A stretch of DNA of 64,000 bases, from IMG/VR virus record IMGVR_UViG_3300010261_000001, positions 6,378-70,377 of that record. The stretch is one strand, 5' to 3'. Every line of letters begins with the position of its first letter. The first letter of the stretch is position 1. The translations under genes and the position numbers were made by a program. The notes beneath the pieces are model-generated. The model was not told the origin of the DNA, ran no database searches, and saw only the letters and a list, made by a program, of their open reading frames with translations. This document shows positions 37,177 to 62,452 of the stretch, piece by piece. Source of the DNA: a virus (Duplodnaviria > Caudoviricetes).

Positions 37177-37893
37177 TTAAAACATTGTTGTTTGCCTATC
37201 TTCCCAGTAAAATTTTTCTTCTAATTCCTGTATGCTGTAATCACTTCTGAATTTTCTTCCAAACTGTTTTATGCTTCTAAAGTCATATTCTTTCATCTTT
37301 TGCCAAAGTTCATGATAATCTCTGTATATTACTTTTAGTTCCCCTAATCGTTGTAATGGACATAGATAGCAACTTACTCTGTCTAATTTCTCATACAGTC
37401 CATTCCAATCAAAGCCTTTACTATAGCAATACTCTAAACAGTCTCTTTCTGTCATTCCCCATTCAATTAAAGGATGCTTAATATTTCTTCCATCTTTATT
37501 TTTCTTTGCCCTATGTGATTCATCTAGTGCTATGCCATGATATTCTGTTACTTCTTCATATTTGCTTAGGTACTGACTTATTAATTGCTTTTTAAGTGCT
37601 TGAGTGCACCATCTGTTTCTAAAATCAGGCCATGAGTATCCTTTTTTACCTTTGTTTTTACCTTTCGTTTTCTCATATTCAAACATTAGATATTCAAAGC
37701 TGTACTGACTTTTTAATACTGTTATTTTTCTGCCGACCATCTTCTCGACCTCGGCAATATGGTCGTACATCTCTGGAAATTCTACTCCTGTGTCACCAAA
37801 TATTATTTCATCTATTTGCATATCTTCTTCTAATATTCTTAGTAATAATGCTGTACTGTCTTTGCCACCTGAAAAACTAACTATATGTTTCAC
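37177..37893 (-). CDS. PAPS reductase family (PP-loop) protein
   Basis: KHIVSFSGGKDS, RWCT, RVSCYLCP; GTG start at 37893. Confidence 0.85.
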   Translation of the reverse strand: MKHIVSFSGGKDSTALLLRILEEDMQIDEIIFGDTGVEFPEMYDHIAEVEKMVGRKITVLKSQYSFEYLMFEYEKTKGKNKGKKGYSWPDFRNRWCTQALKKQLISQYLSKYEEVTEYHGIALDESHRAKKNKDGRNIKHPLIEWGMTERDCLEYCYSKGFDWNGLYEKLDRVSCYLCPLQRLGELKVIYRDYHELWQKMKEYDFRSIKQFGRKFRSDYSIQELEEKFYWEDRQTTMF

Positions 37894-38115
37894 CTTTCCA
37901 CCCACTCAAGATATATTTCATCTCGAATAGGTAATTGCAAAGCCTACCCATCCCCTTAGGAACGACCTAAGAGAGCAAGTCATATGCAATTTTGCACTTC
38001 GTTTCTACAGCTAAAACGCCTTTTAATAGGTCGTGAACCTAATTGAATAGACGATATATTCTCGGGCTTGTAACCTGCTTTAGCAGGATTGGAAAGGTAT
38101 CGGTTTGAGTTTCAA
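37887..38115. mobile_element. 222-bp non-coding structured insertion with 6-bp direct repeat
   Basis: GTTTCA at 37887 and 38109; CCTTTCCA/TGGAAAGG inverted repeat; removal restores RBS-TTG AAA CAT. Confidence 0.55.
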
Positions 38116-49210: not shown

Positions 49211-49493
49211 AATCGTCATATATGCCTATGTTTTTTAATTTATTTTTTAATAAATTGTCTTTTGTATAGTTTTTGGACTCTATAATTGCTCTAGGTGCGT
49301 TTTTATATTCTTTCTCGATAATTTCCTTTACTATATCCTCTATGTCTTTGCTGTCGGCTTTGTAGTGCTTCAAATAATACTTGGCTGCATTTACAAAGAA
49401 TCCGCTAACATTAACTTTATCTTTTTCTAGTTTTTCTATATGAACTATAACATCTTTATCAGATTCTTCACTTAAATAGATAGTCTTTCTCAT
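49209..49493 (-). CDS. ParR-like adaptor
   Basis: Small RHH-like protein coupled to parM. Confidence 0.65.
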   Translation of the reverse strand: MRKTIYLSEESDKDVIVHIEKLEKDKVNVSGFFVNAAKYYLKHYKADSKDIEDIVKEIIEKEYKNAPRAIIESKNYTKDNLLKNKLKNIGIYDD

Positions 49494-50449
49494 TTTACTA
49501 GATCACCCATTTCATAAAATCCCTTGCAATTTGCAAATTGGCTTTCTTCCATGTTAAACATAAAATCTGCGTCTTTAAAATATTTGTCTAAGTAATCCAT
49601 TAGCATAAAGCTAGTTCCGCCTACAAAAGCTACGTTGTACAGCTCTTTATTGATATTATTCTTGTTTAATTCTTCTAGTATATTGATCTCGATATACTTA
49701 GATATTTCTTCGTTGATTTTCTTGCTTGTATCTTCTAAGCTAAGCACATCATTTTTTAGATATCCATTTGATATAGCTGTTCTCATAACTGCATTTGTGA
49801 TATTCTCTATACCTTCGCTTTCAAAACTATTTATAAGCGTTTGCTCTATCGTAGTTCCACCTGCATTTTTTGAAAACATCTTATCGACATTTGGGACCAT
49901 ATCATCAAATAAGATTACATTAAGGTTCTGGCCTCCTATATCTATTACAAGCGTATTTTGATTAAGAAATAGATCCGGCCTTAAAACTGTTATTCCTGCT
50001 CCCTCTGGTCTAATTCTTATACGTTCAAATTCAAAGTAATAATCTTCCCCATCTACTTTTATATCAACTTTTCCATTTCCATGGATATTTTGTTTATATT
50101 CTTCTTTTAGGTCCGCATTCTTAAAGATAGTGGCTGGACAACCTGTGATTAAATCGATTTTGTGACTTGTATTTGGCGTAATAAATTGAGCAATTGCTAC
50201 ATATTGACATAGTTTATTGATTTCATCTGTTTTAGAAGTAGTATGATTCCTTTTAGTTCCACTATCACCTATTAGATATTCCTTTCCATTATAGACTATA
50301 TGATGAGTGTTACCTGCTACAATCGTGTCCCCACCTTCTTCAAAGCTGTAAATCTTGCTTTGAAACTTCTCTGTGACATATAATCCATTTTCTTTTATAC
50401 AAGCTTTCGTTGAATCTTTACCTGCATCTACACTAATTAACATTTTCAT
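49490..50449 (-). CDS. parM: ParM/StbA actin-like partition ATPase
   Basis: VDAGKDSTK, RPEG, IDIGGQNLN, VGG motifs. Confidence 0.9.
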   Translation of the reverse strand: MKMLISVDAGKDSTKACIKENGLYVTEKFQSKIYSFEEGGDTIVAGNTHHIVYNGKEYLIGDSGTKRNHTTSKTDEINKLCQYVAIAQFITPNTSHKIDLITGCPATIFKNADLKEEYKQNIHGNGKVDIKVDGEDYYFEFERIRIRPEGAGITVLRPDLFLNQNTLVIDIGGQNLNVILFDDMVPNVDKMFSKNAGGTTIEQTLINSFESEGIENITNAVMRTAISNGYLKNDVLSLEDTSKKINEEISKYIEINILEELNKNNINKELYNVAFVGGTSFMLMDYLDKYFKDADFMFNMEESQFANCKGFYEMGDLVK

Positions 50450-50472
50450 TCCCCCTTAATTTGTATTACAAT

Positions 50473-50532
50473 TCATACTTTATCATACATTTTAACCTTC
50501 TGCAATGTGTGTTTTATCATACTTTGTCATAC
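50473..50532 (-). promoter_or_regulatory. parC-like centromere/operator and parM promoter
   Basis: TCATAC at 50473, 50483, 50517, 50527 flanking TTGCAG-17-TAAAGT. Confidence 0.6.
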
Positions 50533-52713
50533 TTATAGTATTTTAGGCAACTTAGAAATAAATCTAGAATATTGGTTATTGTGTCTAATTACATTCAAGC
50601 TTTCCCATTCCTTTAAGTTCATAGCTTCATCTATAGTAAATGGCTGTATTTCCTCTTTTAAAGCCATTAGATTTTCTTTTTCTAATCCATTCAGTAGCAT
50701 ATAACTTGCCCCTGATGATTTAACTGCATCTAAAAGTGTCTTGAACTGTTTCAGGTAATGAACTGTGAAAAATGGAGCAATACCAAACTTTCTAAATTCT
50801 GTGATATGATTTTCTAAAAAAGCCGCTGCTGTTGGAATTTGGCTTACTTCGTCAACTACTATATGAGCAATGTTTGGCTTATCAATGGAACTTCTCTCAT
50901 AACATGCCATTACTATCCTTGTCATGAAGTAGGTAACAATCACATCTTTAGTTGATTTATCTCTAAACATGCTCTGCGGCATCCTGATATATACTGCCTT
51001 GCCTTCGTTCATATATTTTGTGAAATTATGCTTATCGGGCTTAGAATTAAGCATTAACGACATTCGTGGATCATCTTGAAATTTATCTATTCTGTTTATT
51101 ATTCCAGCTATAAGATGATGCCTGGTACCTATGATTTTACCATCTTCATCAGCATCATTTAATTCTCTAAGTGTATTCAATGTTCTATCGTTATAATCAT
51201 ATATACCCTTTGTTTTTCGTATGTATTCCCCTCTAGTTTTCCAATCCTCAAGCACTCTCAAGCAATTATCTAGCGTTTCGTTAGGATGAATAAACACCAC
51301 TCTAGCTGCCGCTTTAAGGTATCGAACCATGGCACCTGTAAGAGGGCCAGTGTTTTCATCTGTGACGGAATTTATCAAATAAGTCACTTGTTTCGCAATA
51401 TCGCTCGCTATTTCTATCCTTTCAAACGGTGTGGAAAATTCATTTAGCTTATATGATATTTCTGGATATGAAAAGCTCGGCAAATTGTTTATATCGGACA
51501 GATCTATAATAACGTTGTTTTTAGTATGCTTACTTGCTGTTTCCGTTAGTTCACAATTCTTTATATAGTCGAATACAACAGTGCAATGACCTAGCTTGTT
51601 GGCTGATACTATGAAGTTTTCTGTGTACTTACTTTTGCCTGAACCCTGGGGACCCGCAACAATTTTAGGAAGTGCCATGCTATTATAATCATTGCACCAA
51701 TACGCTTTTAATTTTTCTCTTTTTACATCTGATATTCCTATTGGTATTCCTGGAACTTGTAGATCAGGTGGTATAGATATTTCTCTAGCATCGATATTGT
51801 CTATTTTATATGTTCTTTGATAGTCCTTTGTCGGCAATTGCATGATTTGAGCTAATTCTTTTGAAGATAATATATTTTTATAGTTGCTTTTGTTTACTAA
51901 TATAAATTTGTTGTCTCCGTCCATAGCATTAAAAGATTTTAAAATGTTCCTGAATAAAACTTCACTTCTATTTGATATTGTGGAGATTATAATTTTTGTT
52001 TTATAAGCACTGTATTTTGATTTCTGCAATGTGTCATTACTTAGTCCACTTCTCATCAGATTTGCATATCTTGCATCGTCTGGGTATTCGTGTTCAATTT
52101 TTTCATCGCTAATCATATCGTTTATAAAATCTATTCCGTCATAAACAAATTCAAGTGCTAGATTGACGATTTTAGTCGCTATTACCCTTTTATCAATTTT
52201 ACTTTTAGATGTAACTATACCATTTTGCTTAAATCGTTCGATACACTCGTCTGCTTCCTTGTACCAAGTCGGACTCTCAGGCTCTAATTCTAATCTTATG
52301 TAAAGCATTTCACCGTATTTTAGCATATTTTGAGTTTCTAATATGTTTGAAAGCGGCCATTCTCCCCTTAAGTCTGTTTTAAGTGATAAAAAATAATGTT
52401 CTGCTAGTTCTAGTTCCTTTGTTGTTTCTCCTATAAATGCAAAATTAGTTTCTTTAAATGTAGCATTTTTCCAACATACATTTAATTCCGTTGTGAAATT
52501 ATCTCTTATTCTATCATCAAACCCTATAAAAAACTTAATATCATCATTAGTCATTAAAATTTCATAAGTAGTGGTATATTGATATTCAAATGTCCATGAG
52601 TCGCCATTATCTCGAATTCGATTAAATGGTTTTCTGTAATAGTGGGTATTTTCCAGTAATCCTACTAACTTAGAATTATTAATGCTCAAATTTGGTATAA
52701 CTTGATATTTCAT
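50533..52713 (-). CDS. Large P-loop ATPase (VirB4/TraG/HerA-like)
   Basis: GPQGSGKS Walker A, IVVDE Walker B; ATG 52713 after AGGTGA. Confidence 0.75.
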   Translation of the reverse strand: MKYQVIPNLSINNSKLVGLLENTHYYRKPFNRIRDNGDSWTFEYQYTTTYEILMTNDDIKFFIGFDDRIRDNFTTELNVCWKNATFKETNFAFIGETTKELELAEHYFLSLKTDLRGEWPLSNILETQNMLKYGEMLYIRLELEPESPTWYKEADECIERFKQNGIVTSKSKIDKRVIATKIVNLALEFVYDGIDFINDMISDEKIEHEYPDDARYANLMRSGLSNDTLQKSKYSAYKTKIIISTISNRSEVLFRNILKSFNAMDGDNKFILVNKSNYKNILSSKELAQIMQLPTKDYQRTYKIDNIDAREISIPPDLQVPGIPIGISDVKREKLKAYWCNDYNSMALPKIVAGPQGSGKSKYTENFIVSANKLGHCTVVFDYIKNCELTETASKHTKNNVIIDLSDINNLPSFSYPEISYKLNEFSTPFERIEIASDIAKQVTYLINSVTDENTGPLTGAMVRYLKAAARVVFIHPNETLDNCLRVLEDWKTRGEYIRKTKGIYDYNDRTLNTLRELNDADEDGKIIGTRHHLIAGIINRIDKFQDDPRMSLMLNSKPDKHNFTKYMNEGKAVYIRMPQSMFRDKSTKDVIVTYFMTRIVMACYERSSIDKPNIAHIVVDEVSQIPTAAAFLENHITEFRKFGIAPFFTVHYLKQFKTLLDAVKSSGASYMLLNGLEKENLMALKEEIQPFTIDEAMNLKEWESLNVIRHNNQYSRFISKLPKIL

Positions 52714-52721
52714 GCTATCAC

Positions 52722-52925
52722 CTACAATAACATTGAAGCTATTTGAATTATAATAAATCCATATAGCCCATTTTTGCATAGTTTTTTCCCGCCAAACTCA
52801 TTGCCCATCATTATCAAGACTCCACCTATGCATAATACAACGACCAATCCGGCCCAACTTAGAGTAGCTAACTCATTTACTATTGTTTGTAAGATTGGCA
52901 ACACCTTGCTTGAGAATCCTTTCAT
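52722..52925 (-). CDS. TrbC/VirB2 pilin-like two-TM protein
   Basis: 67 aa, two hydrophobic helices with G-rich/basic linker. Confidence 0.55.
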   Translation of the reverse strand: MKGFSSKVLPILQTIVNELATLSWAGLVVVLCIGGVLIMMGNEFGGKKLCKNGLYGFIIIQIASMLL

Positions 52926-53460: not shown

Positions 53461-53720
53461 GCATAAAAAAGTGGGGTTTATCCCCACTTAATTTATTTTA
53501 TTAATATTTTCTATCAACTCACTTAAACTATTATAATATTCTCCACTATTCCAAATCAAATTTCCATATCTTATAAGATATCCATTGGCTTTAATGAATT
53601 GACTTCTCTCAAGCCTAAACAATATCATGTAATCCTTTTTTACATCCAGCACAATAACATCACCAATGCTATCGTTTACATGAATTTTATTTCCTACGTT
53701 TATTTCCATATTTTCACCTC

Positions 53721-53924
53721 CTATATTTCATATGTTTCTAACCCTTGACACTCTGGACATTCATCATTTTCTGCCCCTATGAATTGATACCCGCACTCTC
53801 TACACTCGATAAGGTATAGCTCCTCAAATTCTTCACTTTCACATTCTGGGCATTTCTTAGGATACCCTGTATTTCCATCTTCCCATTCATAATCACAATC
53901 TAGACAATGAAATCTATATAACAT
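53721..53924 (-). CDS. Double Zn-ribbon protein
   Basis: Four CxxC pairs. Confidence 0.7.
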   Translation of the reverse strand: MLYRFHCLDCDYEWEDGNTGYPKKCPECESEEFEELYLIECRECGYQFIGAENDECPECQGLETYEI

Positions 53925-54194
53925 ATTAACCCCTCCCTTTATTCTTCTTCGTACCAGTTTAAAAAACCTCTGTCACACACCCAGTCTAATAATGCTTCTC
54001 CTATTTCTTCATCCGTTGCATCGTCGTCAAATTCAACTGGTTCTTCCGTCAAGCTACATGCTACATTAGTACTAATCTGAAAAACTACTTTTCTCATAAT
54101 CTTACCTCCCTACGAATTTAATCTCTTATCAATATTCTTTCAGTAATTTTGCTTCGTTGTATAATCCTTCATGTAGTAAATCACATTGCGGACC

Positions 54195-54377
54195 TTACTT
54201 ATCGTTTTCTTTTAAAATAATTATTTTTTCACCATCAAATTTTAATTTTAAGTTTCTTGTATTTTCGTCCAAACCCATTTCTCTAATCCATTTTGTTGGA
54301 AGAGTTGCTCTAAAAGTAGAATTTCCAGCACCAGATTTATTTACTACCATTTTCGCTTTCCTAGTTTCGATTTTCAT
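54195..54377 (-). CDS. AbrB/MazE/SpoVT-like DNA-binding protein
   Basis: KSGAGNSTFRATLPTKWIREMGL. Confidence 0.75.
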   Translation of the reverse strand: MKIETRKAKMVVNKSGAGNSTFRATLPTKWIREMGLDENTRNLKLKFDGEKIIILKENDK

Positions 54378-54378
54378 A

Positions 54379-54930
54379 TCACTTCACCCTACAATTTACT
54401 TCAGAATATTTAACCATATCTTTTATTGAGTAATTTCTAAATATTGTATTTAGCTTATTGCTATATTCTATCTCATTAAAATCTTCTTTTCCCTGTGCTT
54501 TGATGCTTTGTTTCAATCTTCTTGAATACTCTGTGCTAAATCCAATATACCTTAAAGCTTTTACTTCACCTGTTGTTGTATCTATTAAAGTAATCATGCA
54601 ACCATACCCTTCACCATCTTCAACTTCATCTAGCGTCGTTAGATTTTTCGATAATCTTACATGATATGGTGCATCCATCCATGGCATACTGCCAAATTTA
54701 CTTAGTATAAACATTACACCTTCTTTGATGTACATTCCAAATTGGAGCTTACCTGTTTTAACTTGTTCTATCTCTTTTTGGCTAGGAGTCTTAAATAGTA
54801 ATAATAGTGTAGCTCCATCATCTGCCATATCAAACTTAACTCCGTCATTTGCTCCTTTAAACTTTTGTATTTTGTCTCCTATTTCTATTTTATACATAAC
54901 TATTCCCCTTATTATTATTTTGTTTCCCAT
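54379..54930 (-). CDS. Conserved hypothetical protein
   Basis: 183 aa ORF in operon; WMDAPY motif. Confidence 0.6.
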   Translation of the reverse strand: MGNKIIIRGIVMYKIEIGDKIQKFKGANDGVKFDMADDGATLLLLFKTPSQKEIEQVKTGKLQFGMYIKEGVMFILSKFGSMPWMDAPYHVRLSKNLTTLDEVEDGEGYGCMITLIDTTTGEVKALRYIGFSTEYSRRLKQSIKAQGKEDFNEIEYSNKLNTIFRNYSIKDMVKYSEVNCRVK

Positions 54931-55424
54931 GATCTTGAAAAATCTTTATCTTTAAATAATGCAGCTAGGCCTGTAATTTGCTTTAATCTTAATATTTCAT
55001 CTAGATCCATTCCAATGTTTTTAGCTATCCAAGCATCACTCATTCCACTTTCGACTAATTCAGCTACTATATTAGACATAAGTTCTATGTCGTGGCTTCC
55101 TCTTGCTCTATTGTGCCTTATGGTGCTTGCCATACGATTTTGCAAAGGTTTGTCAATAATGGATACTGGCAAACATCCATTCTCCCTATCATATATATCT
55201 TTGTGTTCTTTAATGATCCTGTACCTATGATAACCATCTACTATTTCATAAATATCTTCGTCTTCTATATAGTAACATACAATCGGCATGGTATAGCCAT
55301 CTTGCTTAATGCTTTGGTATAATAATTTCATCTCAGGTGGAGCGACTGCATTTGGATTGTAAGCGTTAGCTTGTATTTTTTCTACTGGTACTGGTTTGAC
55401 GCTATAAACCGGGCTCTTAAACAT
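54915..55424 (-). CDS. ibrB: ParB/Srx-like protein (IbrB/YbdM-like)
   Basis: NAYNPNAVAPPEMKLL, IVDGYHRY, STIRHNRARG. Confidence 0.88.
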   Translation of the reverse strand: MFKSPVYSVKPVPVEKIQANAYNPNAVAPPEMKLLYQSIKQDGYTMPIVCYYIEDEDIYEIVDGYHRYRIIKEHKDIYDRENGCLPVSIIDKPLQNRMASTIRHNRARGSHDIELMSNIVAELVESGMSDAWIAKNIGMDLDEILRLKQITGLAALFKDKDFSRSWETK

Positions 55425-55437
55425 AATATCATCTCCT

Positions 55438-55932
55438 TTATTTTAGTTTTTGTATTTGCTTACATATATAATTTATGGTTTCTTTCATTTCTAACTCATC
55501 GTTGATAGATAAGATAATTTTAGCTAAAGGAACCAAATGCTTATCTATGTCTTTTTTATTACTTGTCGTTATTTGTTTATCCCTCTTCATAAATGTTATG
55601 TCGTTTGGCTTTTTACTAACTTCTTCGAATCCTTGTTTTTTAAATATATTTTTCGAACCCTTTGTGGCAAAAACGCTCATATTCTTATCATTTCTCAATA
55701 CATGTTCTACTAACGCTGTACCTATACCTTTGTTCTTGTAATTATTTTCAACTAAAAAACCTTTTATTCTTGCTATGTTTTTATATTCTAGTGTAGATAT
55801 AACGCCTACAAGAAGATTATCTTTGTAGTAGCCCCAATGGATTCCTTTTTCATTTATTGAGACTTGTTTTTTTGAAGAACCATTTTGTCTTAGAAACGAT
55901 GCATAGGTTTTTGAATCAATTTTTTTAATCAT
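55438..55932 (-). CDS. GNAT acetyltransferase
   Basis: FLVENNYKNKGIGTALV (motif A), F.KQGF (motif B). Confidence 0.8.
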   Translation of the reverse strand: MIKKIDSKTYASFLRQNGSSKKQVSINEKGIHWGYYKDNLLVGVISTLEYKNIARIKGFLVENNYKNKGIGTALVEHVLRNDKNMSVFATKGSKNIFKKQGFEEVSKKPNDITFMKRDKQITTSNKKDIDKHLVPLAKIILSINDELEMKETINYICKQIQKLK

Positions 55933-57253
55933 AGTTTTTCCCCCTAATAATGTTCTTGTATTTCTTCATAACCTCCCCTCTTTTTTGCTGTTCCGTTTTT
56001 GTTTGTGCAAATCCCATATACTTGCACGTGTGATCGTTTTTCATTATACAAATACACATTCGTTTATAAGTTGGAACTCTGCTAAAGTCAGTAACGTTTG
56101 TATCGTCTAAATAATCATCAAATTTTATTATCTCTTTATCGCCTTTCCCCCTTTTCGACACCTTACCAGTTCTAATAACAGGCGCTCCTTCTTCCTCTAA
56201 CTCCTTTATTGTTTGGGAATCTCTTGCACCCCCAACCTTCCAACTTTTTTTTGATACTTCTAGTTTTTTAAGATAATTTTCTCTAGCACTTTTTGGTAAT
56301 GTATCAAGTAAGAAATACATGTATTCCTTCCATGTAAAATGTTCAGGCTTTTTAATATTTTTCCATCCCATTGCTACTGTACCGCCATAGGTTCCTGCAA
56401 AATTTACTCCATTCACTCTACTGATAAGTTTTCCCCATGTATGTGGTTCTATAACTTTGTAGAGTTTTAGACTTTCTGTAGCACAATCGTTAAAAGGACT
56501 AGCTACCCTCATCTGATTTAAGGTTAATCCAGCCTGATAAAATAAATCATACAATTTATTATATTTCCATCCAAAGGTTCCGTTTGCTATCCATATATCT
56601 TCTGCTTTCCAATCGTAAATCGGATAACTTTTTATCAATTTATCGTTTTCTGGATCAACTGTACACCATTCCAATCCTTCGTATTGGTTTGTTTTTTGTT
56701 TACTCGTTATAGCAGCTTGTCTATTGAGGCTTTCATCTGCCCTCAGCCCAATCAGTACAGCTGTCTTACCATTAGCAACAGCATACCATCTACTAAAATT
56801 ATCTTGAACTTCATAATCCCAAGTACCTTTCGTAAATTTAAATGGAACATTATTTTCATTTATTACAAATTTGTTATCTGGCATATTCCTTACCCATATT
56901 TCTTTTTCTTCACTATTCCAAGGTATCCAGTGATCCTGATACATCGAAACTGCACATTGTGCTGCAACAGGTAAGCATAACCAATATTTCTTTATACCTT
57001 CAAAATCATTAATAAAACTTTCCTCTACATATTTAGTTGTATTCTCGTACTGAGCTTCATAATCTAAGTGATACATTGCTAGCTTACCTAAATTATTAGT
57101 TTCTTTAGCATATTGATAGCATGAATTTAATAAAATGCCGCTATCTTTACCACCACTAAAAGCTACTAGTACATTGTCAAATTCTTTAAATATATATTCC
57201 AGTCTTTCCTGTGTAGCTTCATATACATTTTTACCCGTATAAATTTTAGGCAA
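55925..57253 (-). CDS. ibrA: PAPS-reductase/DUF3440 protein (IbrA/YbdN-like)
   Basis: FSGGKDS, GLRADESLNR, YPIYDW, MRVASPF, CICIMKND. Confidence 0.88.
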   Translation of the reverse strand: MPKIYTGKNVYEATQERLEYIFKEFDNVLVAFSGGKDSGILLNSCYQYAKETNNLGKLAMYHLDYEAQYENTTKYVEESFINDFEGIKKYWLCLPVAAQCAVSMYQDHWIPWNSEEKEIWVRNMPDNKFVINENNVPFKFTKGTWDYEVQDNFSRWYAVANGKTAVLIGLRADESLNRQAAITSKQKTNQYEGLEWCTVDPENDKLIKSYPIYDWKAEDIWIANGTFGWKYNKLYDLFYQAGLTLNQMRVASPFNDCATESLKLYKVIEPHTWGKLISRVNGVNFAGTYGGTVAMGWKNIKKPEHFTWKEYMYFLLDTLPKSARENYLKKLEVSKKSWKVGGARDSQTIKELEEEGAPVIRTGKVSKRGKGDKEIIKFDDYLDDTNVTDFSRVPTYKRMCICIMKNDHTCKYMGFAQTKTEQQKRGEVMKKYKNIIRGKNYD

Positions 57254-58719
57254 CTAATTCCCCTCCTTCAAGTCTTCTATATCCGTTATAGTTTCTTTTA
57301 CTTTTCCTCTAATTTTTAATCTCCCTTTGCGATCTCTTTTATAAATATAACTTTCGATAAATAATTGTTTATTATCCTTTTGCTTTTCTATTTCAGACTT
57401 AAAACTGTCTACTAAGTTTTCTTTTTTCCATAAGCATTTTAATATTCTTTCATCCAGTGTATAGGATGCACATAAATCTATTATGTGCACATTCTTATCC
57501 TGTCCTATCCTATGCACTCTATCTTCGCTTTGTGCTCTTGTAGCAAAGTCCCAATCATTTGAATAATACACAACATAACTACAAAACTGTAAATTAAGTC
57601 CATATCCAGCACATACTTTATTTGCCACTAAAAATTGAGCACCATTTCTAAAAACATCTATGTTTTTTTGCCTTTTTTTCTGATTTAGTTCTCCATAAAA
57701 AGGCACCGCCTTTCCTTCTCCATACTTTTTGTTTAATATCGCTGTGATAGTTTCGATTTCGTCTGTATATTTGCAAAATATTATTACCTTTTGATCCACG
57801 CCATCAAGCACCTCAAGCAATGTTTTTATTCTAGGATTATCATATGGAGTTTTAAAAAATGGTTCTCTTTTCATTGGACGTTCTGTCCTCGTTACCTTAA
57901 ATCCAGATATAACACTTTGTAAACCACTAAATAGCCTATATATGGTTTCCGGTTCTAGTTCATCCACTTCAAACAACAGTGTATCTGCAATTTCTTGATA
58001 ATGCCAATCTTGCATTTCATCTAATTCATAGTAAACAGTTTTGTATGATTTATTAGGTAAATCTAAGCACTCTTCTTTTCTCACCTGGTAAGTATATGGT
58101 GCTATTTTCCTTACTAAATAATCAGTATTTAAGCATCTATTAATTTTGCCCGGGATGTTAGGATCATATTCTAGGTGATTACCTGCAAAGCTCCAAAAGC
58201 TCCGATAACCTAGTATTCTCCAGTCTAAAATATACCACTGTGAAAACAAATCTTTTTCATTTCTGCTAATAGGTGTTCCGTTTAAAATTAATTTGTATTG
58301 GCAAAATTCGCTTAGTCGAATAATGTTTTTTGTCCTTTGAGCCATGTGATTTTTAACTAGATTGCTTTCGTCGACTATCAAATATACTTTTCTTTCCTGT
58401 ACTAACCTTAATAAAATAGAGTTAGCCCTAATACTGCTAGATAGTGTTTCTATGCCACATATAGTGAACATTGACAAATCACCTTCACAGTGCTTTTTTA
58501 TGTCTCTTTTTAGATTCTCCTTTACACTGCAAGGGCAAAGCCAAAGTACGTGATTAACTTTGCCCTTATCCAATCTATCTTTTATAAGTTCCAACGCTGT
58601 CCTAGTTTTTCCAGTTCCCATTTCAAGGCTTTCCAAAGATACAACGCTCCTACCTTTACTTTAGACAATTTTTCAACTGCTTTTTTCTGATGTTCATATA
58701 GGCTCGTTGTAAATCTCAT
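57254..58719 (-). CDS. SNF2-family helicase interrupted by 11-nt insert at 58625-58635
   Basis: Q motif LYEHQ in 58719 frame; EMGTGKT, DES, GYGLNLQ, QSEDRVHRIGQ in 58636 frame. Confidence 0.8.
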
Positions 58720-59495
58720 TCAACCACCTCCTCTTTATATCTCCATATGTATCCCAAATATGATGGTATCTTGTTTTTGCAACATTTAATTATTCCTGTT
58801 AAACAAGTCTTGTCTTTTGTTTTATTATTTTCTAGCAGCCATCTTGCAGCATCTGACATAACTTCAAATTCCAACTGTTTTTCCATCGTCATTTTATCAA
58901 ACGCTACTATTGGTTTGTTGTTGGAGTGTTTTAATACATTAACTGCGTGTCTCTGATTTTCTCTATTAGTAGTCCATTCTAGGTTTTTAACATTGTTATT
59001 TAATCCGTTTCCATCTTTATGGTTTACGTATGGTTTATTTGAAGGGTTTTCTATAAAGGCTGTTGCTACCAATCTATGCACAGAAAACATTTTTAGCTTT
59101 CCATTCTTGCACAAGCTAACTTGGTAATATTCAGCTTTAGATTTCTGTGTTAATAGTTTCTGACTTAAAATTTTTTCTTTTTGAACATAGCCTATCTGTG
59201 TCCTGCCTATTTTTTTTGTTTTTCTATATCTTTCTAAGCTCTTAACCCTCCCTAAATTACTAATTGCATACAACCCTTCGTAACCATTTATGTTCCTCCA
59301 GATTTCACCTTCTAGGTTTGGAACTTTAGGTAACGGTGTGTTATCTTGCTCTTTGCGTTTTCTTTTCAGTTCCCTTCTTTGCTCTTCTTTACAACATTTG
59401 CACCTGCTATCACGTCCGTATTTGCCTTTTTTGTTTCTATAAAACTCAGATAATGGTTTTTCTTTGCCGCACCTCGTACATATTCTAGTTAACAT
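58716..59495 (-). CDS. Freestanding HNH homing endonuclease (Zn finger, NUMOD4, HNH, NUMOD1-like)
   Basis: YAISNLGRVKS, VHRLVA, VNHKDG..NN...NLEW. Confidence 0.9.
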   Translation of the reverse strand: MLTRICTRCGKEKPLSEFYRNKKGKYGRDSRCKCCKEEQRRELKRKRKEQDNTPLPKVPNLEGEIWRNINGYEGLYAISNLGRVKSLERYRKTKKIGRTQIGYVQKEKILSQKLLTQKSKAEYYQVSLCKNGKLKMFSVHRLVATAFIENPSNKPYVNHKDGNGLNNNVKNLEWTTNRENQRHAVNVLKHSNNKPIVAFDKMTMEKQLEFEVMSDAARWLLENNKTKDKTCLTGIIKCCKNKIPSYLGYIWRYKEEVVE

Positions 59496-59555
59496 ATAAT
59501 CACCTCTGTACATAGTATATCATACATAGGTAAAACATACTATGCATAAAACATT

Positions 59556-60752
59556 TTAATCATCCTTTAAATCTTCTAAAATATCTGAATTAGATTCAAG
59601 TATTTTTTCTAACCCGTCAATACTTTCTTTTCCTTCTACTTCTACAGGATCAACTACTTCAACTTTATTTAAAGATTCTTTATATTCATCTATAGCTTTT
59701 ATAGCACCTGTTGAAAGTTTAAAACCGTACAATTCTGCAAATTCCTCTATTTCTTTATAATGCCATACTTTTATTTTCATTCCACTATCCCAATATGCTC
59801 CAGGAAGAGATTTGGCTGCTTTATATAGCTTATTATCAAATCCATCCCATCTGATAACTAATAAATCACTGTCCGTTATTTTGAATATCCAATTAGTGCA
59901 TTCAGGTTCATACACTCCATTTATCGCATTATTTCTTATTTCTTCATCTAGTATCATAATAGGGAATCCTGCATTTAAAAGCTCGTTACCTAATTCGGCT
60001 GCCCTGTCTCCTACTGTACCAGTTGCTTGAGTTATTTTTCTTTCCCATATGCCATTCCAAGTATAGCCAAGACTTTTAACTATTTTTCTAAACTCTTCAT
60101 TTCTTTCAAATCTTACAGTTATCTTACCTTCTTTAGGGGTTATTTCTGCGACTGCATTTGTGATTTTGTTTTCTGGATAAACAGTCGATTCTAATTTTAA
60201 TTCTTTTACCGTTTTTTTCTCTATTTCTTCTCTTGCTTTTTCTTCATCCGTTTTAAAAGCTTCATCATGAAAGTCTAGTATATATCTAAATAAATCAGTG
60301 TTCCTATTGTCAATATAAAACCTTGCTGTTGTTTTGTTTTCTATTATATAGTCTCTTATTGTTATAAAGGATTCTTCGTTTAATAGTTGTTTGATATACT
60401 CTTCTCCTAAGTTCTTTTTTATTTCTTTTAATTCTAGTTTATAGTAATATTTATAATCGTTTATTTCATTTTCTTTTATTTTGCTCATTTTTTCTATAAA
60501 GTTTTGTCTTAAAGTGTTAGCCCACGCAACCTGTTTTTCTGATCCCGCTAATTTTGGTAGTTCCATTTCTTTTGCTTTTTCTTCAGCTTCTTTATTAGCC
60601 TTTTGTCTTTCTTCCTCTAAATATTTTTCCCAGCACTCTGGACACATTTTTTCAAACTGTCTATCCGCCTTCCATTGTCTGTCTTTGGTAGGGCCAATAA
60701 TATTAACCCTACCTTCGTGACCACAACTATAAGTTCCATAATACCAAGCCAT
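59556..60752 (-). CDS. Conserved protein with N-terminal Zn site; possible HARP-like repeats
   Basis: YSCGH..CPEC, GSEKQVAWAN; typically upstream of SNF2 genes (recollection). Confidence 0.6.
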   Translation of the reverse strand: MAWYYGTYSCGHEGRVNIIGPTKDRQWKADRQFEKMCPECWEKYLEEERQKANKEAEEKAKEMELPKLAGSEKQVAWANTLRQNFIEKMSKIKENEINDYKYYYKLELKEIKKNLGEEYIKQLLNEESFITIRDYIIENKTTARFYIDNRNTDLFRYILDFHDEAFKTDEEKAREEIEKKTVKELKLESTVYPENKITNAVAEITPKEGKITVRFERNEEFRKIVKSLGYTWNGIWERKITQATGTVGDRAAELGNELLNAGFPIMILDEEIRNNAINGVYEPECTNWIFKITDSDLLVIRWDGFDNKLYKAAKSLPGAYWDSGMKIKVWHYKEIEEFAELYGFKLSTGAIKAIDEYKESLNKVEVVDPVEVEGKESIDGLEKILESNSDILEDLKDD

Positions 60753-60765
60753 TTTTATACCTCCT

Positions 60766-61056
60766 TTAAAATTTTTCTGTTTTTAGCTTTAAAAACTTTA
60801 TTTTTTCTATTATTAAATCCTTTGCCTTTGCAATATCTAATTCGCCTTCTTCTTCCCAAATTACGAAGTTGTAATATGGATCTGCTGCCCTAGTTATAAT
60901 TGCTTCTACTTCTTTTCCTTCTACAGTAGTGAGTGTGCCAAACCTGCTGATCGTTCTTTCCCTGTGATAAACTGCATCTAGCCATTCTACTTTAATCTCC
61001 ATTTCTTCTATCAAAACAAAGCTTTCTAGCTTTTCTCCAGTGTATATACTTTTCAT
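60766..61056 (-). CDS. Hypothetical protein
   Basis: AGGAGG RBS, first gene after promoter. Confidence 0.6.
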   Translation of the reverse strand: MKSIYTGEKLESFVLIEEMEIKVEWLDAVYHRERTISRFGTLTTVEGKEVEAIITRAADPYYNFVIWEEEGELDIAKAKDLIIEKIKFLKLKTEKF

Positions 61057-61099
61057 TTTATTACCTCCTTGAATTGCTTTTCCTCTACCTCTTATCTAT

Positions 61100-61128
61100 A
61101 ATATATCAAAACAACGTTACGTTGTCAA
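61100..61128 (-). promoter_or_regulatory. Sigma-A promoter with palindromic operator
   Basis: TTGACA-17-TATATT; ACAACGT-T-ACGTTGT at 61111-61125. Confidence 0.8.
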
Positions 61129-61240: not shown

Positions 61241-61274
61241 AAAAAATAAAAAAAGACCAAGGTTTCCCTTGGCC
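61241..61274 (-). terminator. Terminator after lysis genes
   Basis: GGCCAAGG-GAAA-CCTTGGTC plus T-run. Confidence 0.85.
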
Positions 61275-61284
61275 TATAATAAAT

Positions 61285-61659
61285 CTACTCAACTTTCCTC
61301 TGTGTTTCACTAGCAAAATTAACTTTCATATATTCATCAGAGTAACCTAATAGATCCTTATCTTTGGAGAGGTACTCTTTCATATATTGTACTCCATCCT
61401 CAATAAGTCTATCTAACTCTTTCTTAGATATAAGTAGAGTTAATATGCTAGGTAACATCTTGTAAATATTCTCAACAACCATGGCATACTTGAGTTCTCC
61501 AGTTCCTGAACCCAAAGCCTTCTCTGCCTGAACCACTAGACTCAATACCGCTTGTCTAACAAATTCTTTTTTTCCTCTTTTGTAAAGAAAAAGTAGCCCT
61601 ATTATAAAAACTAGAACTACCAGGATTGAACTTAGATTCATTTTTATAAAATCTAACAT
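61285..61659 (-). CDS. Holin-like protein (LL-H-type)
   Basis: N-terminal TM, AEKALGSGTGELK motif; after endolysin. Confidence 0.65.
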   Translation of the reverse strand: MLDFIKMNLSSILVVLVFIIGLLFLYKRGKKEFVRQAVLSLVVQAEKALGSGTGELKYAMVVENIYKMLPSILTLLISKKELDRLIEDGVQYMKEYLSKDKDLLGYSDEYMKVNFASETQRKVE

Positions 61660-61660
61660 A

Positions 61661-62452
61661 TTATTTTTCCTCCTTATAATTTATTGTTACTGTTCCATTC
61701 TTCCAATCGATTTTGTAACCTAACTTTTCTAAAAATCTTATAGGAATATAATTTGTGCCTTTTTCATATATCCCATCAGTTTCAATCTGTTTTCCATGCA
61801 AATCGATTTTGATTTTGTCTAATTTGGTTTCTTCCTTCTGTTCCACTTTGGTAATTTCTTTTTCTTTGCCTGTAAAATACTCTAGTGATTTAGTTCCCAT
61901 TAGTCTATTTAGGTCTAGATTACCATTGTATCCGTCCAATCTTCCAACACTCGTATATTGGTGTATGTCACAAGGAAAAGCAGGTTTACTGTTTACTTTG
62001 CCATTATTGACTCCATAGTGAGGAATCCATACTGCATCAAACTTACTCATGTCTAAATTAAATTGCTTATATAGATGATGTGCAATGTACACCCCTACTT
62101 TCTTTACTCCTAATTTTCTAAGTTGGCCCACATATGCAGATATACCAACTCTCATATTGGCCATAGATTTTTCTTCTACATCCAAGAACCAGAATGTAGG
62201 ATTTAAGTCTTTAGTACGATTGTAGAAGTCAGTTGCTTCTTTCCTCATGTCATTTTCAGATATTCCTCTAACCCATGCATAACAAGCTGTAGGAACTCCC
62301 CTCTTTCGGAATTCTTTGTGATGGGTTTTGTAGTGCCTGTCTAATGTTCTACTGCCGTACTGGGTACGGATGATTGCAAGGTCAACTTGTTTGGCTAACT
62401 TATCATAATTCATACTCTTTGGATCTTGATGATGTGATATATCAATAATCAT
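61661..62452 (-). CDS. Endolysin, GH25 muramidase
   Basis: IDISHHQ, WFLDVEE, IHQYTS..GNLDLN; C-terminal stalk-like domain. Confidence 0.92.
   Translation of the reverse strand: MIIDISHHQDPKSMNYDKLAKQVDLAIIRTQYGSRTLDRHYKTHHKEFRKRGVPTACYAWVRGISENDMRKEATDFYNRTKDLNPTFWFLDVEEKSMANMRVGISAYVGQLRKLGVKKVGVYIAHHLYKQFNLDMSKFDAVWIPHYGVNNGKVNSKPAFPCDIHQYTSVGRLDGYNGNLDLNRLMGTKSLEYFTGKEKEITKVEQKEETKLDKIKIDLHGKQIETDGIYEKGTNYIPIRFLEKLGYKIDWKNGTVTINYKEEK

Follow-up and report, generated by a model that had tools for sequence, protein, structure and literature searches.

What do IbrA and IbrB do for the phages that carry them, and why would a GNAT-family acyltransferase gene be wedged between the two? The question is raised by an operon in a 64,000-nucleotide stretch of DNA (the window), which spans positions 6378-70377 of one tailed-phage contig 70,377 bases long (IMG/VR record IMGVR_UViG_3300010261_000001). 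Few gene pairs that lack an assigned reaction are as widespread in phages and prophages as IbrA and IbrB; databases label the former 'PAPS reductase' and the latter 'ParB partition protein', and the pair is often read as sulfur metabolism. A first-pass annotation of the window had read the operon as a candidate system for DNA modification or anti-defence, and had singled out the GNAT insertion as its unusual part. Following up this reading, we observed the composition of the module, the linkage and conservation of its genes, a gene fusion and the specificity of its GNAT subfamily, and found that the operon is a rare, GNAT-bearing form of a widespread and uncharacterised phage module. As judged by sequence comparison, the interpretation of the first-pass annotation, i.e., modification that would allow restriction evasion or superinfection defence, is plausible.

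The operon occupies the minus strand (61128-53469) as a unit with a single strong promoter, bounded by two terminators. Its genes encode, in order, a 96-residue protein (p96), a 398-residue protein (Zn398), an HNH endonuclease, a SNF2-family translocase, IbrA, the GNAT, IbrB, a further protein (p183), a MazE/AbrB-like protein and three small open reading frames (ORFs). From SNF2 through the AbrB-like gene, adjacent stops and starts touch or overlap. Three genes lie at the centre of the question:

55925..57253, minus strand, IbrA, a PP-loop ATP-pyrophosphatase (PAPS-reductase) fold followed by DUF3440
55438..55932, minus strand, GNAT, matching Acetyltransf_10 at 44.1 bits (cut-off 23.6) and overlapping the IbrA stop by 8 bases
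54915..55424, minus strand, IbrB, a ParB/Srx fold, matching ParB_N at 31.3 bits (cut-off 26.3) and phrog_2159 at E 8e-81

IbrA combines a PAPS_reduct domain (43.7 bits over residues 162-239, cut-off 22.5) and then DUF3440 (PF11922; 271.8 bits, E 3.3e-81, cut-off 25) in one protein, as in the IbrA/YbdN family, and IbrB lies on the same strand 500 bases downstream, with the GNAT alone between them. The IbrA-GNAT-IbrB order reported earlier is therefore real, and the three genes form a co-inherited unit with intact enzyme motifs.

We surveyed IbrA loci from IMG/VR (80), from one genome per species (66) and from metagenomes (80); removal of identical IbrA genes left 184 loci, 142 of them with enough flanking sequence. 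IbrB immediately followed IbrA in 140 of these 142, while SNF2 immediately preceded IbrA in 72 and was present anywhere in the fetched locus in 81, the fetched flanks of the other 61 containing no SNF2 gene. The hosts spanned Bacillota, Bacteroidota, Verrucomicrobiota, Campylobacterota and Spirochaetota, and an IbrA homologue was found in 134 deposited phage records. SNF2-IbrA-IbrB is thus a common phage module, and not an unusual core; it is only the GNAT-bearing subtype (8 of the 184 distinct loci, plus the window) that is rare, in line with the emphasis that the first-pass annotation had placed on the GNAT. Conservation within the module is highest for IbrB, whose median identity across 138 loci is 72%, compared with 50% for IbrA and 28% for SNF2, and its motifs DGYHRY and RHNRARG are nearly invariant.

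The pair itself has counterparts in E. coli, where IbrA/IbrB (on an island of ECOR-9) and YbdN/YbdM (in K-12) likewise consist of a PAPS_reduct+DUF3440 protein followed by a ParB_N protein. These pairs have neither SNF2 nor GNAT, whereas the core in the window is phage-borne, preceded by SNF2 and split by the GNAT. The YbdN/YbdM pair was shown to be under the control of the LysR regulator YbdO (PMC9068703). The same three core genes, mostly in the same order and in a post-lysis slot, are carried by Lactobacillus phage AQ113, Streptococcus phage 36L, Moineauvirus CHPC1062 (S. thermophilus) and Fusobacterium phage phiFN37; the window differs in adding Zn398, HNH, p183 and the AbrB-like gene, and in its GNAT, since no GNAT of this subfamily is detectable in deposited phages (tblastn with three of its members gave no match among 50,697 deposited phage records). 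In AQ113, 36L and CHPC1062, as in the window, the trio lies between the lysis cassette and the early region, and no integrase is listed in their fetched stretches, which favours a role on the side of the phage.

Among the surveyed loci, tblastn placed a GNAT between IbrA and IbrB in L003/L154/L155, L007, L009, L086, L087, L160 and the decayed L165, and in L140 the order is IbrB-GNAT-orf132-IbrA. When a profile of these GNATs was searched against 5.8 billion proteins, 16 clusters were recovered at E<=6.5e-30 and the next at 8.7e-8, a gap indicating that they form a discrete subfamily. All eight members newly looked up adjoin PAPS_reduct+DUF3440 and ParB_N genes, seven in the IbrA-GNAT-IbrB order and one in the order of L140. 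The GNAT is thus no one-off insertion, the outcome that the first-pass annotation had named as fatal to its proposal; it belongs to a dedicated subfamily, stands beside IbrA and IbrB in every member looked up, and is in one case fused to IbrB.

The window GNAT is a minimal ~120-residue form with a C-terminal extension of ~45 residues. It belongs to the GNAT superfamily by both its Pfam score and its loop for binding the pyrophosphate of acyl-coenzyme A (acyl-CoA), (Q/R)xxGxG/A, whose sequence is KNKGIG in the window; most of the 21 subfamily members have RxxGxG. The subfamily is marked by an N-terminal FLKxNxANKEQV segment and by an invariant Phe in place of the usual catalytic Tyr before the GF motif. 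Phage Mu Mom modifies adenine by means of an acyltransferase fold, and TmcA combines a helicase with a GNAT to produce N4-acetylcytidine (ac4C) in tRNA. These proteins are precedents for a GNAT fold acting on bases of nucleic acids, with a helicase module alongside it in TmcA. The window GNAT differs in its minimal size and in its restriction to IbrAB operons, and no Mom or TmcA family was matched at E<=0.01 in the Pfam scan, only generic GNAT families.

GNATs are spread over three or more IbrA lineages, and the G+C content of the GNAT-bearing loci ranges from 27 to 58%. In the IbrA tree (FastTree), the window falls into a small clade that is mostly GNAT-bearing (5 of 7 rows, support 96), and L009 and L140 fall outside it; to explain this tree, a GNAT or GNAT-like gene must have been gained or lost at least six times, a rough estimate given its long branches. 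In L003 and L155 (99.99% identical assemblies) the GNAT stop has been lost, such that the gene runs in frame into the IbrB start (...DDLF|MFKSPVY...) and yields a 295-residue Acetyltransf_10 + ParB_N protein. No further GNAT-IbrB fusion came up when the GNAT portion of the L003 protein was used in a word search, and a HMMER scan with the whole fusion returned IbrB homologues, none of whose ten long representatives contained a GNAT (these were tandem ParB, LAGLIDADG+IbrB, HNH+IbrB and an ectoine-synthase join). Taken together, the fusion and the operon-specific subfamily would imply a physical complex and an acyl-CoA co-substrate.

Not all proteins encoded at this position carry the cofactor loop. 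In nine loci, those of uncultured Clostridia (L136-L139, L141-L144) and the viral contig L045, the GNAT slot is occupied by an ORF of 117-137 residues that has no Pfam match. Profile-profile alignment (hhalign) related these ORFs to the GNAT subfamily (81% probability, E 1.2e-5), with the cofactor loop skipped. If this match holds, it would point to a fold kept without acetyl-CoA binding, and hence to an adaptor role.

An intact prophage module of the GNAT-bearing type is available in a cultured type strain, Limosilactobacillus agrestimuris DSM 106037 (L087:3129-8219, NZ_CALPCW010000003.1), where it comprises a 412-residue gene, SNF2, a 102-residue ORF, IbrA, GNAT and IbrB. Along with the operon-bound GNAT subfamily and the conservation of IbrB, this module provides a handle for biochemistry. 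The L165 copy (L165:4600-8100; BNJT01002883.1, a 216-kb contig), by comparison, is decayed, with a fragmented SNF2, a truncated IbrA start and a GNAT detectable by tblastn only. We also noted IbrA-GNAT-IbrB (324-328 residues) on a ~40-kb phage contig with a family-B DNA polymerase (L238:2215-7366 and L239; ENA ERZ27236854 and ERZ27303336), where IbrB is followed by a 120-residue ORF and then by a second IbrA paralogue (377 residues) and an N6/N4 DNA methyltransferase.

Is IbrA an enzyme? Its SGGKDS PP-loop, which had been picked out at the start, is intact at residues 33-38 and is invariant in 60 sequences, as are ~40 other positions; such constraint fits catalysis and not mere binding. The 'Cys-rich C-terminus' described earlier comes down to three cysteines, C400, C402 and C410. 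Of these, C400 and C410 are conserved in at least 95% of sequences, as is C93 nearer the N-terminus, and C402 in 81%. In an AlphaFold2 (AF2) model (mean predicted local distance difference test score, pLDDT, 86) the N-domain resembles PAPS/APS reductases (CysH), CysD and FAD synthetase, with the Fe-S tRNA thiolases TtuA and NcsA, and also TilS, among the lower-ranked structural matches. DUF3440 alone (pLDDT 77) matched no fold, its best VIA-align Z being 4.3 and its Foldseek hits all at E>1, and no solved structure related to IbrA by sequence was found.

The Pfam PAPS_reduct match and the CysH-like fold of the N-domain are what the 'PAPS reductase' label builds on, and by that label the module would be an auxiliary sulfur-metabolism set acting on small molecules. 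We consider this highly improbable: the PAPS_reduct score is only 43.7 bits and confined to residues 162-239, IbrA has an extra 200-residue DUF3440, its partner is a ParB-fold protein in 140 of 142 loci and often a DNA translocase as well, and no other sulfur-assimilation genes are linked to it.

A different precedent, invoked by the first-pass annotation, is DNA phosphorothioation. In the DndB/DndC, SspD and BrxP systems, as here, a PP-loop enzyme of the PAPS-reductase family with conserved cysteines is coupled to a ParB-fold protein acting on DNA. IbrA has no DndA, DndD or DndE partners, however, and DndC has no DUF3440. An identity with DndC was rejected (23.5 bits on TIGR03183, cut-off 290.4; PADLOC DndC at E 1.2e-5 over a short stretch), and so was one with SspD, since IbrA gave no hit to the PADLOC SspD model. 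The resemblance is therefore one of working principle and not of membership, and the precedent does not hold as orthology. Similarly, in the DpdA/DpdB 7-deazaguanine pathway a ParB-like NTPase assists a DNA-modifying enzyme, and PADLOC Dpd systems include the SNF2-type DpdE; the operon has no transglycosylase, and its chemistry would instead be PP-loop adenylation.

These likenesses raise the possibility that the module is lysogen-protecting cargo, a system for modification-dependent defence or superinfection exclusion akin to Dnd, Ssp or BREX type 4. The pairing of a PAPS-reductase-family protein with a ParB-like one recalls DndC/DndB, SNF2 weakly matches the ZorD, DpdE and DrmD models, and the unit, with its own promoter and terminators, has a post-lysis position of the sort that morons often occupy. 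Yet no nuclease or other effector is conserved with the trio in the surveyed loci, IbrA falls far short of DndC and does not hit SspD, and CHPC1062 carries the module in a fetched stretch that lists Cro-like and antirepressor genes and no integrase. We thus find a defence of the lysogen very unlikely; the lack of a linked nuclease effector, together with the phages without a listed integrase, favours a role that serves the phage.

We infer the substrate, chemistry and benefit of the module from its anatomy. Our preferred explanation, which we hold tentatively, is that it performs an ATP-dependent modification of nucleic acid in the service of the phage, and that the GNAT is either its acylating subunit or an adaptor. 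The most likely target would be double-stranded DNA of the phage itself, modified after it has been replicated. IbrB, with its ParB/Srx fold and nucleotide-binding arginine motif, would bind DNA and position the complex, and the SNF2 translocase would move it along the duplex or expose the target. The PP-loop of IbrA would then adenylate an oxygen on the base or backbone, which a sulfur or nitrogen nucleophile would replace, and C93, C400, C402 and C410 may serve as ligands of a metal or Fe-S centre. Bound to IbrB, the GNAT would either acylate the newly installed group from acyl-CoA or act as a substrate-holding adaptor. The expected benefit to the phage would be escape from restriction or other DNA-sensing defences. 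Translational coupling of the genes inside one promoter-terminator unit supports this explanation. The earlier idea of a modification or anti-defence system accordingly retains the co-inherited IbrA-GNAT-IbrB unit and its motifs, and parts with the HNH gene as a component, with an intact SNF2 (see below) and with a DndC/SspD identity.

A more specific proposal is an undescribed acylated DNA hypermodification made by IbrA, IbrB and the GNAT, in which an oxygen would be adenylated, an amine or sulfur installed and the product capped from acyl-CoA by the IbrB-tethered GNAT, other IbrAB operons swapping in another decorating enzyme. This we regard as speculative and unlikely; if true, it would make the module a general platform for phage DNA decoration. 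Should the product indeed be a new DNA mark, it would bear on phage-host conflict, on restriction evasion and on modified-base sequencing reads.

Several points weigh against a modification module. Evidence of a modified nucleoside, of a phenotype or of what the substrate might be is found neither in this analysis nor in the searched literature, which yielded no biochemical work on IbrA/IbrB or DUF3440. The module has no linked gene for a sulfur or amine donor, and the fold of DUF3440 could not be recognised, which leaves the substrate-binding part unreadable. The GNAT-like slot proteins without a cofactor loop mean that the GNAT fold may be structural and not catalytic, and with its SNF2 frameshifted, the copy in the window may not work like an intact module. 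Finally, Sandt and Hill reportedly found that ibrAB activates prophage eib genes in E. coli ECOR-9, which points to gene regulation and is, to our knowledge, the only experimental report on the IbrAB family.

This last point leads to another explanation, by which the module would co-activate transcription or counteract silencing: IbrB would bind DNA and a RapA-like SNF2 would remodel RNA polymerase or nucleoid proteins, turning on phage or prophage genes without lasting DNA chemistry. The family is said to take its name from the eib activation, annotation strings in databases read 'co-activator of prophage gene expression', and SNF2 is weakly similar to RapA (E 8e-9). The module also lies where the late and early regions meet, in a unit with its own regulated-looking promoter. 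Against this, the invariant PP-loop and the many other invariant residues of IbrA indicate an enzyme, and a dedicated GNAT is unexpected in a pure DNA-binding activator. We therefore take co-activation to be possible though improbable, bearing in mind that a DNA mark could itself alter expression, such that the two readings are not exclusive.

Returning to the modification module, its translocase gene in the window is interrupted, as follows:

58716..59513, minus strand, free-standing HNH homing-type endonuclease, NUMOD4 at 47.6 bits and HNH_3 at 27.6 bits
58582..58719, minus strand, SNF2 N-terminal frame of 45 residues, 28 of them native (ending ...VGALYL) and 17 out of frame before a stop
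58625..58635, minus strand, insert of 11 bases, TGGAAAGCCTT, with a CTT triplet on either side, directly before the Walker A codons (EMGTGKT)
57254..58636, minus strand, SNF2 body of 460 residues from Walker A to the C-terminus, SNF2-rel_dom at 54.7 bits and Helicase_C at 63.5 bits

The HNH gene, which also matches the PADLOC homing endonuclease model (E 1.3e-21), ends with a stop codon that overlaps the SNF2 start codon. In the nearest relative, the IMG/VR contig L003 (IbrA 70% and SNF2 72% identical), Zn398 and SNF2 lie 12 bases apart with no HNH gene between them, and the gene is likewise missing from this position in L006, L011 and L166. Given its absence from L003, we take HNH to be a mobile, selfish insertion specific to the window and not a component of the system, contrary to the first-pass annotation; its domains and distribution identify it as a probable free-standing homing endonuclease that is polymorphic for presence among relatives.

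The 'SNF2 helicase' named at the start is borne out by both lobes and by the motifs GTGKT, DESN..KN, NGTPI and QSEDRVHRIGQ, though not as a single uninterrupted frame: the 11-base insert shifts the frame before Walker A, such that EMGTGKT is read in another one. In L003, SNF2 is an intact ORF of 478 residues reading ...VGALYMEMGTGKT. The insert, known from the assembled sequence, could be an inactivating indel, could split the gene, or could be skipped if ribosomes hop the short distance from one CTT triplet to the other. A precedent for the last is found in T4, where the MobA endonuclease adjoins the bypass element of gene 60, an untranslatable insert in a conserved ATPase gene. Here too a homing endonuclease gene stands beside a short insert in an ATPase gene with identical flanking codons, but the insert is 11 and not 50 bases long, no stop follows the take-off codon and there is no stem-loop. 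A plain inactivating indel would thus be at least as likely as a bypass of the gene 60 kind.

These findings suggest yet another account, namely that the cassette is decaying in this genome, the HNH insertion and the frameshift having inactivated SNF2 and the rest being on its way out. SNF2 is split before Walker A where L003 has an intact gene, no X XXY YYZ slippery site was seen in the local sequence, and RNA folding around the insert was no better than that of shuffles (z 0.2), so that neither suggests recoding; decayed copies exist elsewhere, e.g., L165. Nevertheless, IbrA, GNAT, IbrB and the 460-residue SNF2 body are all open with their motifs kept, and translation of the body could begin internally, at a TTG (58636) with AGGAG 9 bases before it or at an ATG (58621). 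The CTT triplets leave a ribosomal hop possible, and the 61 of 142 loci with no SNF2 in their fetched flanks imply that IbrAB may work without it. On balance, we view decay as distinctly unlikely.

Homing-type sequences were also noted in IbrB homologues: P0063 (553 residues) has a LAGLIDADG domain ahead of ParB, possibly an intein or a fusion, and P0013 (293 residues) has an HNH_3 segment. The highly conserved IbrB gene would seem to be favoured by homing elements. A third homologue, P0008 (333 residues), has two tandem ParB_N domains.

What else does the unit contain, and how might it be controlled? Its remaining features are these:

61254..61275, minus strand, intrinsic terminator with a 9-bp stem and a T run, closing the upstream lysis genes
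61100..61128, minus strand, sigma-70-type promoter, TTGACA-17-TATATT with extended TG, 11 of 12 matches
61112-61124, perfect 6-1-6 palindrome CAACGT-N-ACGTTG, overlapping the -35 hexamer and spacer
60766..61056, minus strand, p96, 96 residues, first ORF of the unit, no Pfam or PHROGs family
59556..60752, minus strand, Zn398, 398 residues, N-terminal CxH...CxxC zinc-ribbon-like motif, phrog_16123 at E 4.7e-17
54379..54930, minus strand, p183, phrog_12389, between IbrB and the AbrB-like gene
54195..54377, minus strand, MazE/AbrB-like protein, 60 residues, phrog_2329 at E 1.2e-17
53939-54097, minus strand, p52, small trailing ORF
53721-53924, minus strand, p67, 67 residues, two CxxC...CxxC pairs forming a double zinc ribbon
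53488-53709, minus strand, p73, small trailing ORF
53469..53489, minus strand, intrinsic terminator, end of the unit

The promoter ranks first among the promoter-like sites in the region. Of the 16 perfect 6-1-6 palindromes in the window, only the one at 61112-61124 has at least three G/C per arm; its position is suggestive of an operator. The 'perfect operator' of the first-pass annotation is thus a perfect palindrome that does overlap the promoter, although it is present as a single copy, with no second one in the window, and its role as an operator is putative. Pfam and PHROGs placed the domains where that annotation had listed them, except that the first gene is p96 and not the zinc protein; p183 and the three ORFs before the terminator had been omitted.

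Zn398 lies immediately upstream of SNF2 in L003, L005, L006, L011, L045, L162, L164 and L166, and goes with the closer type of SNF2. p183 is a clade-specific companion whose homologues follow IbrB in L003, L086, L162 and L166. Atlas look-ups of both returned only unnamed clusters or low TM-scores. The AbrB-like gene has homologues in L003 and in L004/L156-159, but the fold call is weak, as MazE_antitoxin scores 18.3 bits (E 0.0023), below its 24.7-bit cut-off. Neither p96 nor p67 has a counterpart in any related locus.

The window has a G+C content of ~32% and carries almost all of its genes on the minus strand. Its DNA is listed in a single sequencing run, from a gut metagenome that is probably the sample of origin, and the same look-up listed no RNA run. 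Megablast of 24 kb found no close relative among deposited phages and, among plasmids, nothing beyond a 39-base RepA match. Rfam over the whole window found one tRNA only, outside the operon. Upstream of the operon are the lysis genes:

61661-62452, endolysin, phrog_291 at E 1.5e-49
61285-61659, holin-like protein

Just downstream of the operon, the interval 49490-52779 holds a ParM-like partition gene (49490-50449, phrog_691, E 6e-49) and a 748-residue phrog_5156 protein, and both agree with a remark in the first-pass annotation that the element may be a phage-plasmid. Replication organiser genes lie near 38-39 kb of the window, and in this replication region, at a position unrelated to the IbrAB operon, is a second, shorter gene of the PAPS-reductase family (37177-37905, phrog_424), whose product fits the PADLOC SspD model (E 4.2e-29).

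Of note, phage phiFN37 encodes a queuine tRNA-ribosyltransferase-like gene beside a second ParB-like gene (L001:2535-3366). This DpdA/DpdB-like pair lies ~2.6 kb from its IbrA-IbrB-helicase set, and phiFN37 may thus carry two ParB-assisted modules.

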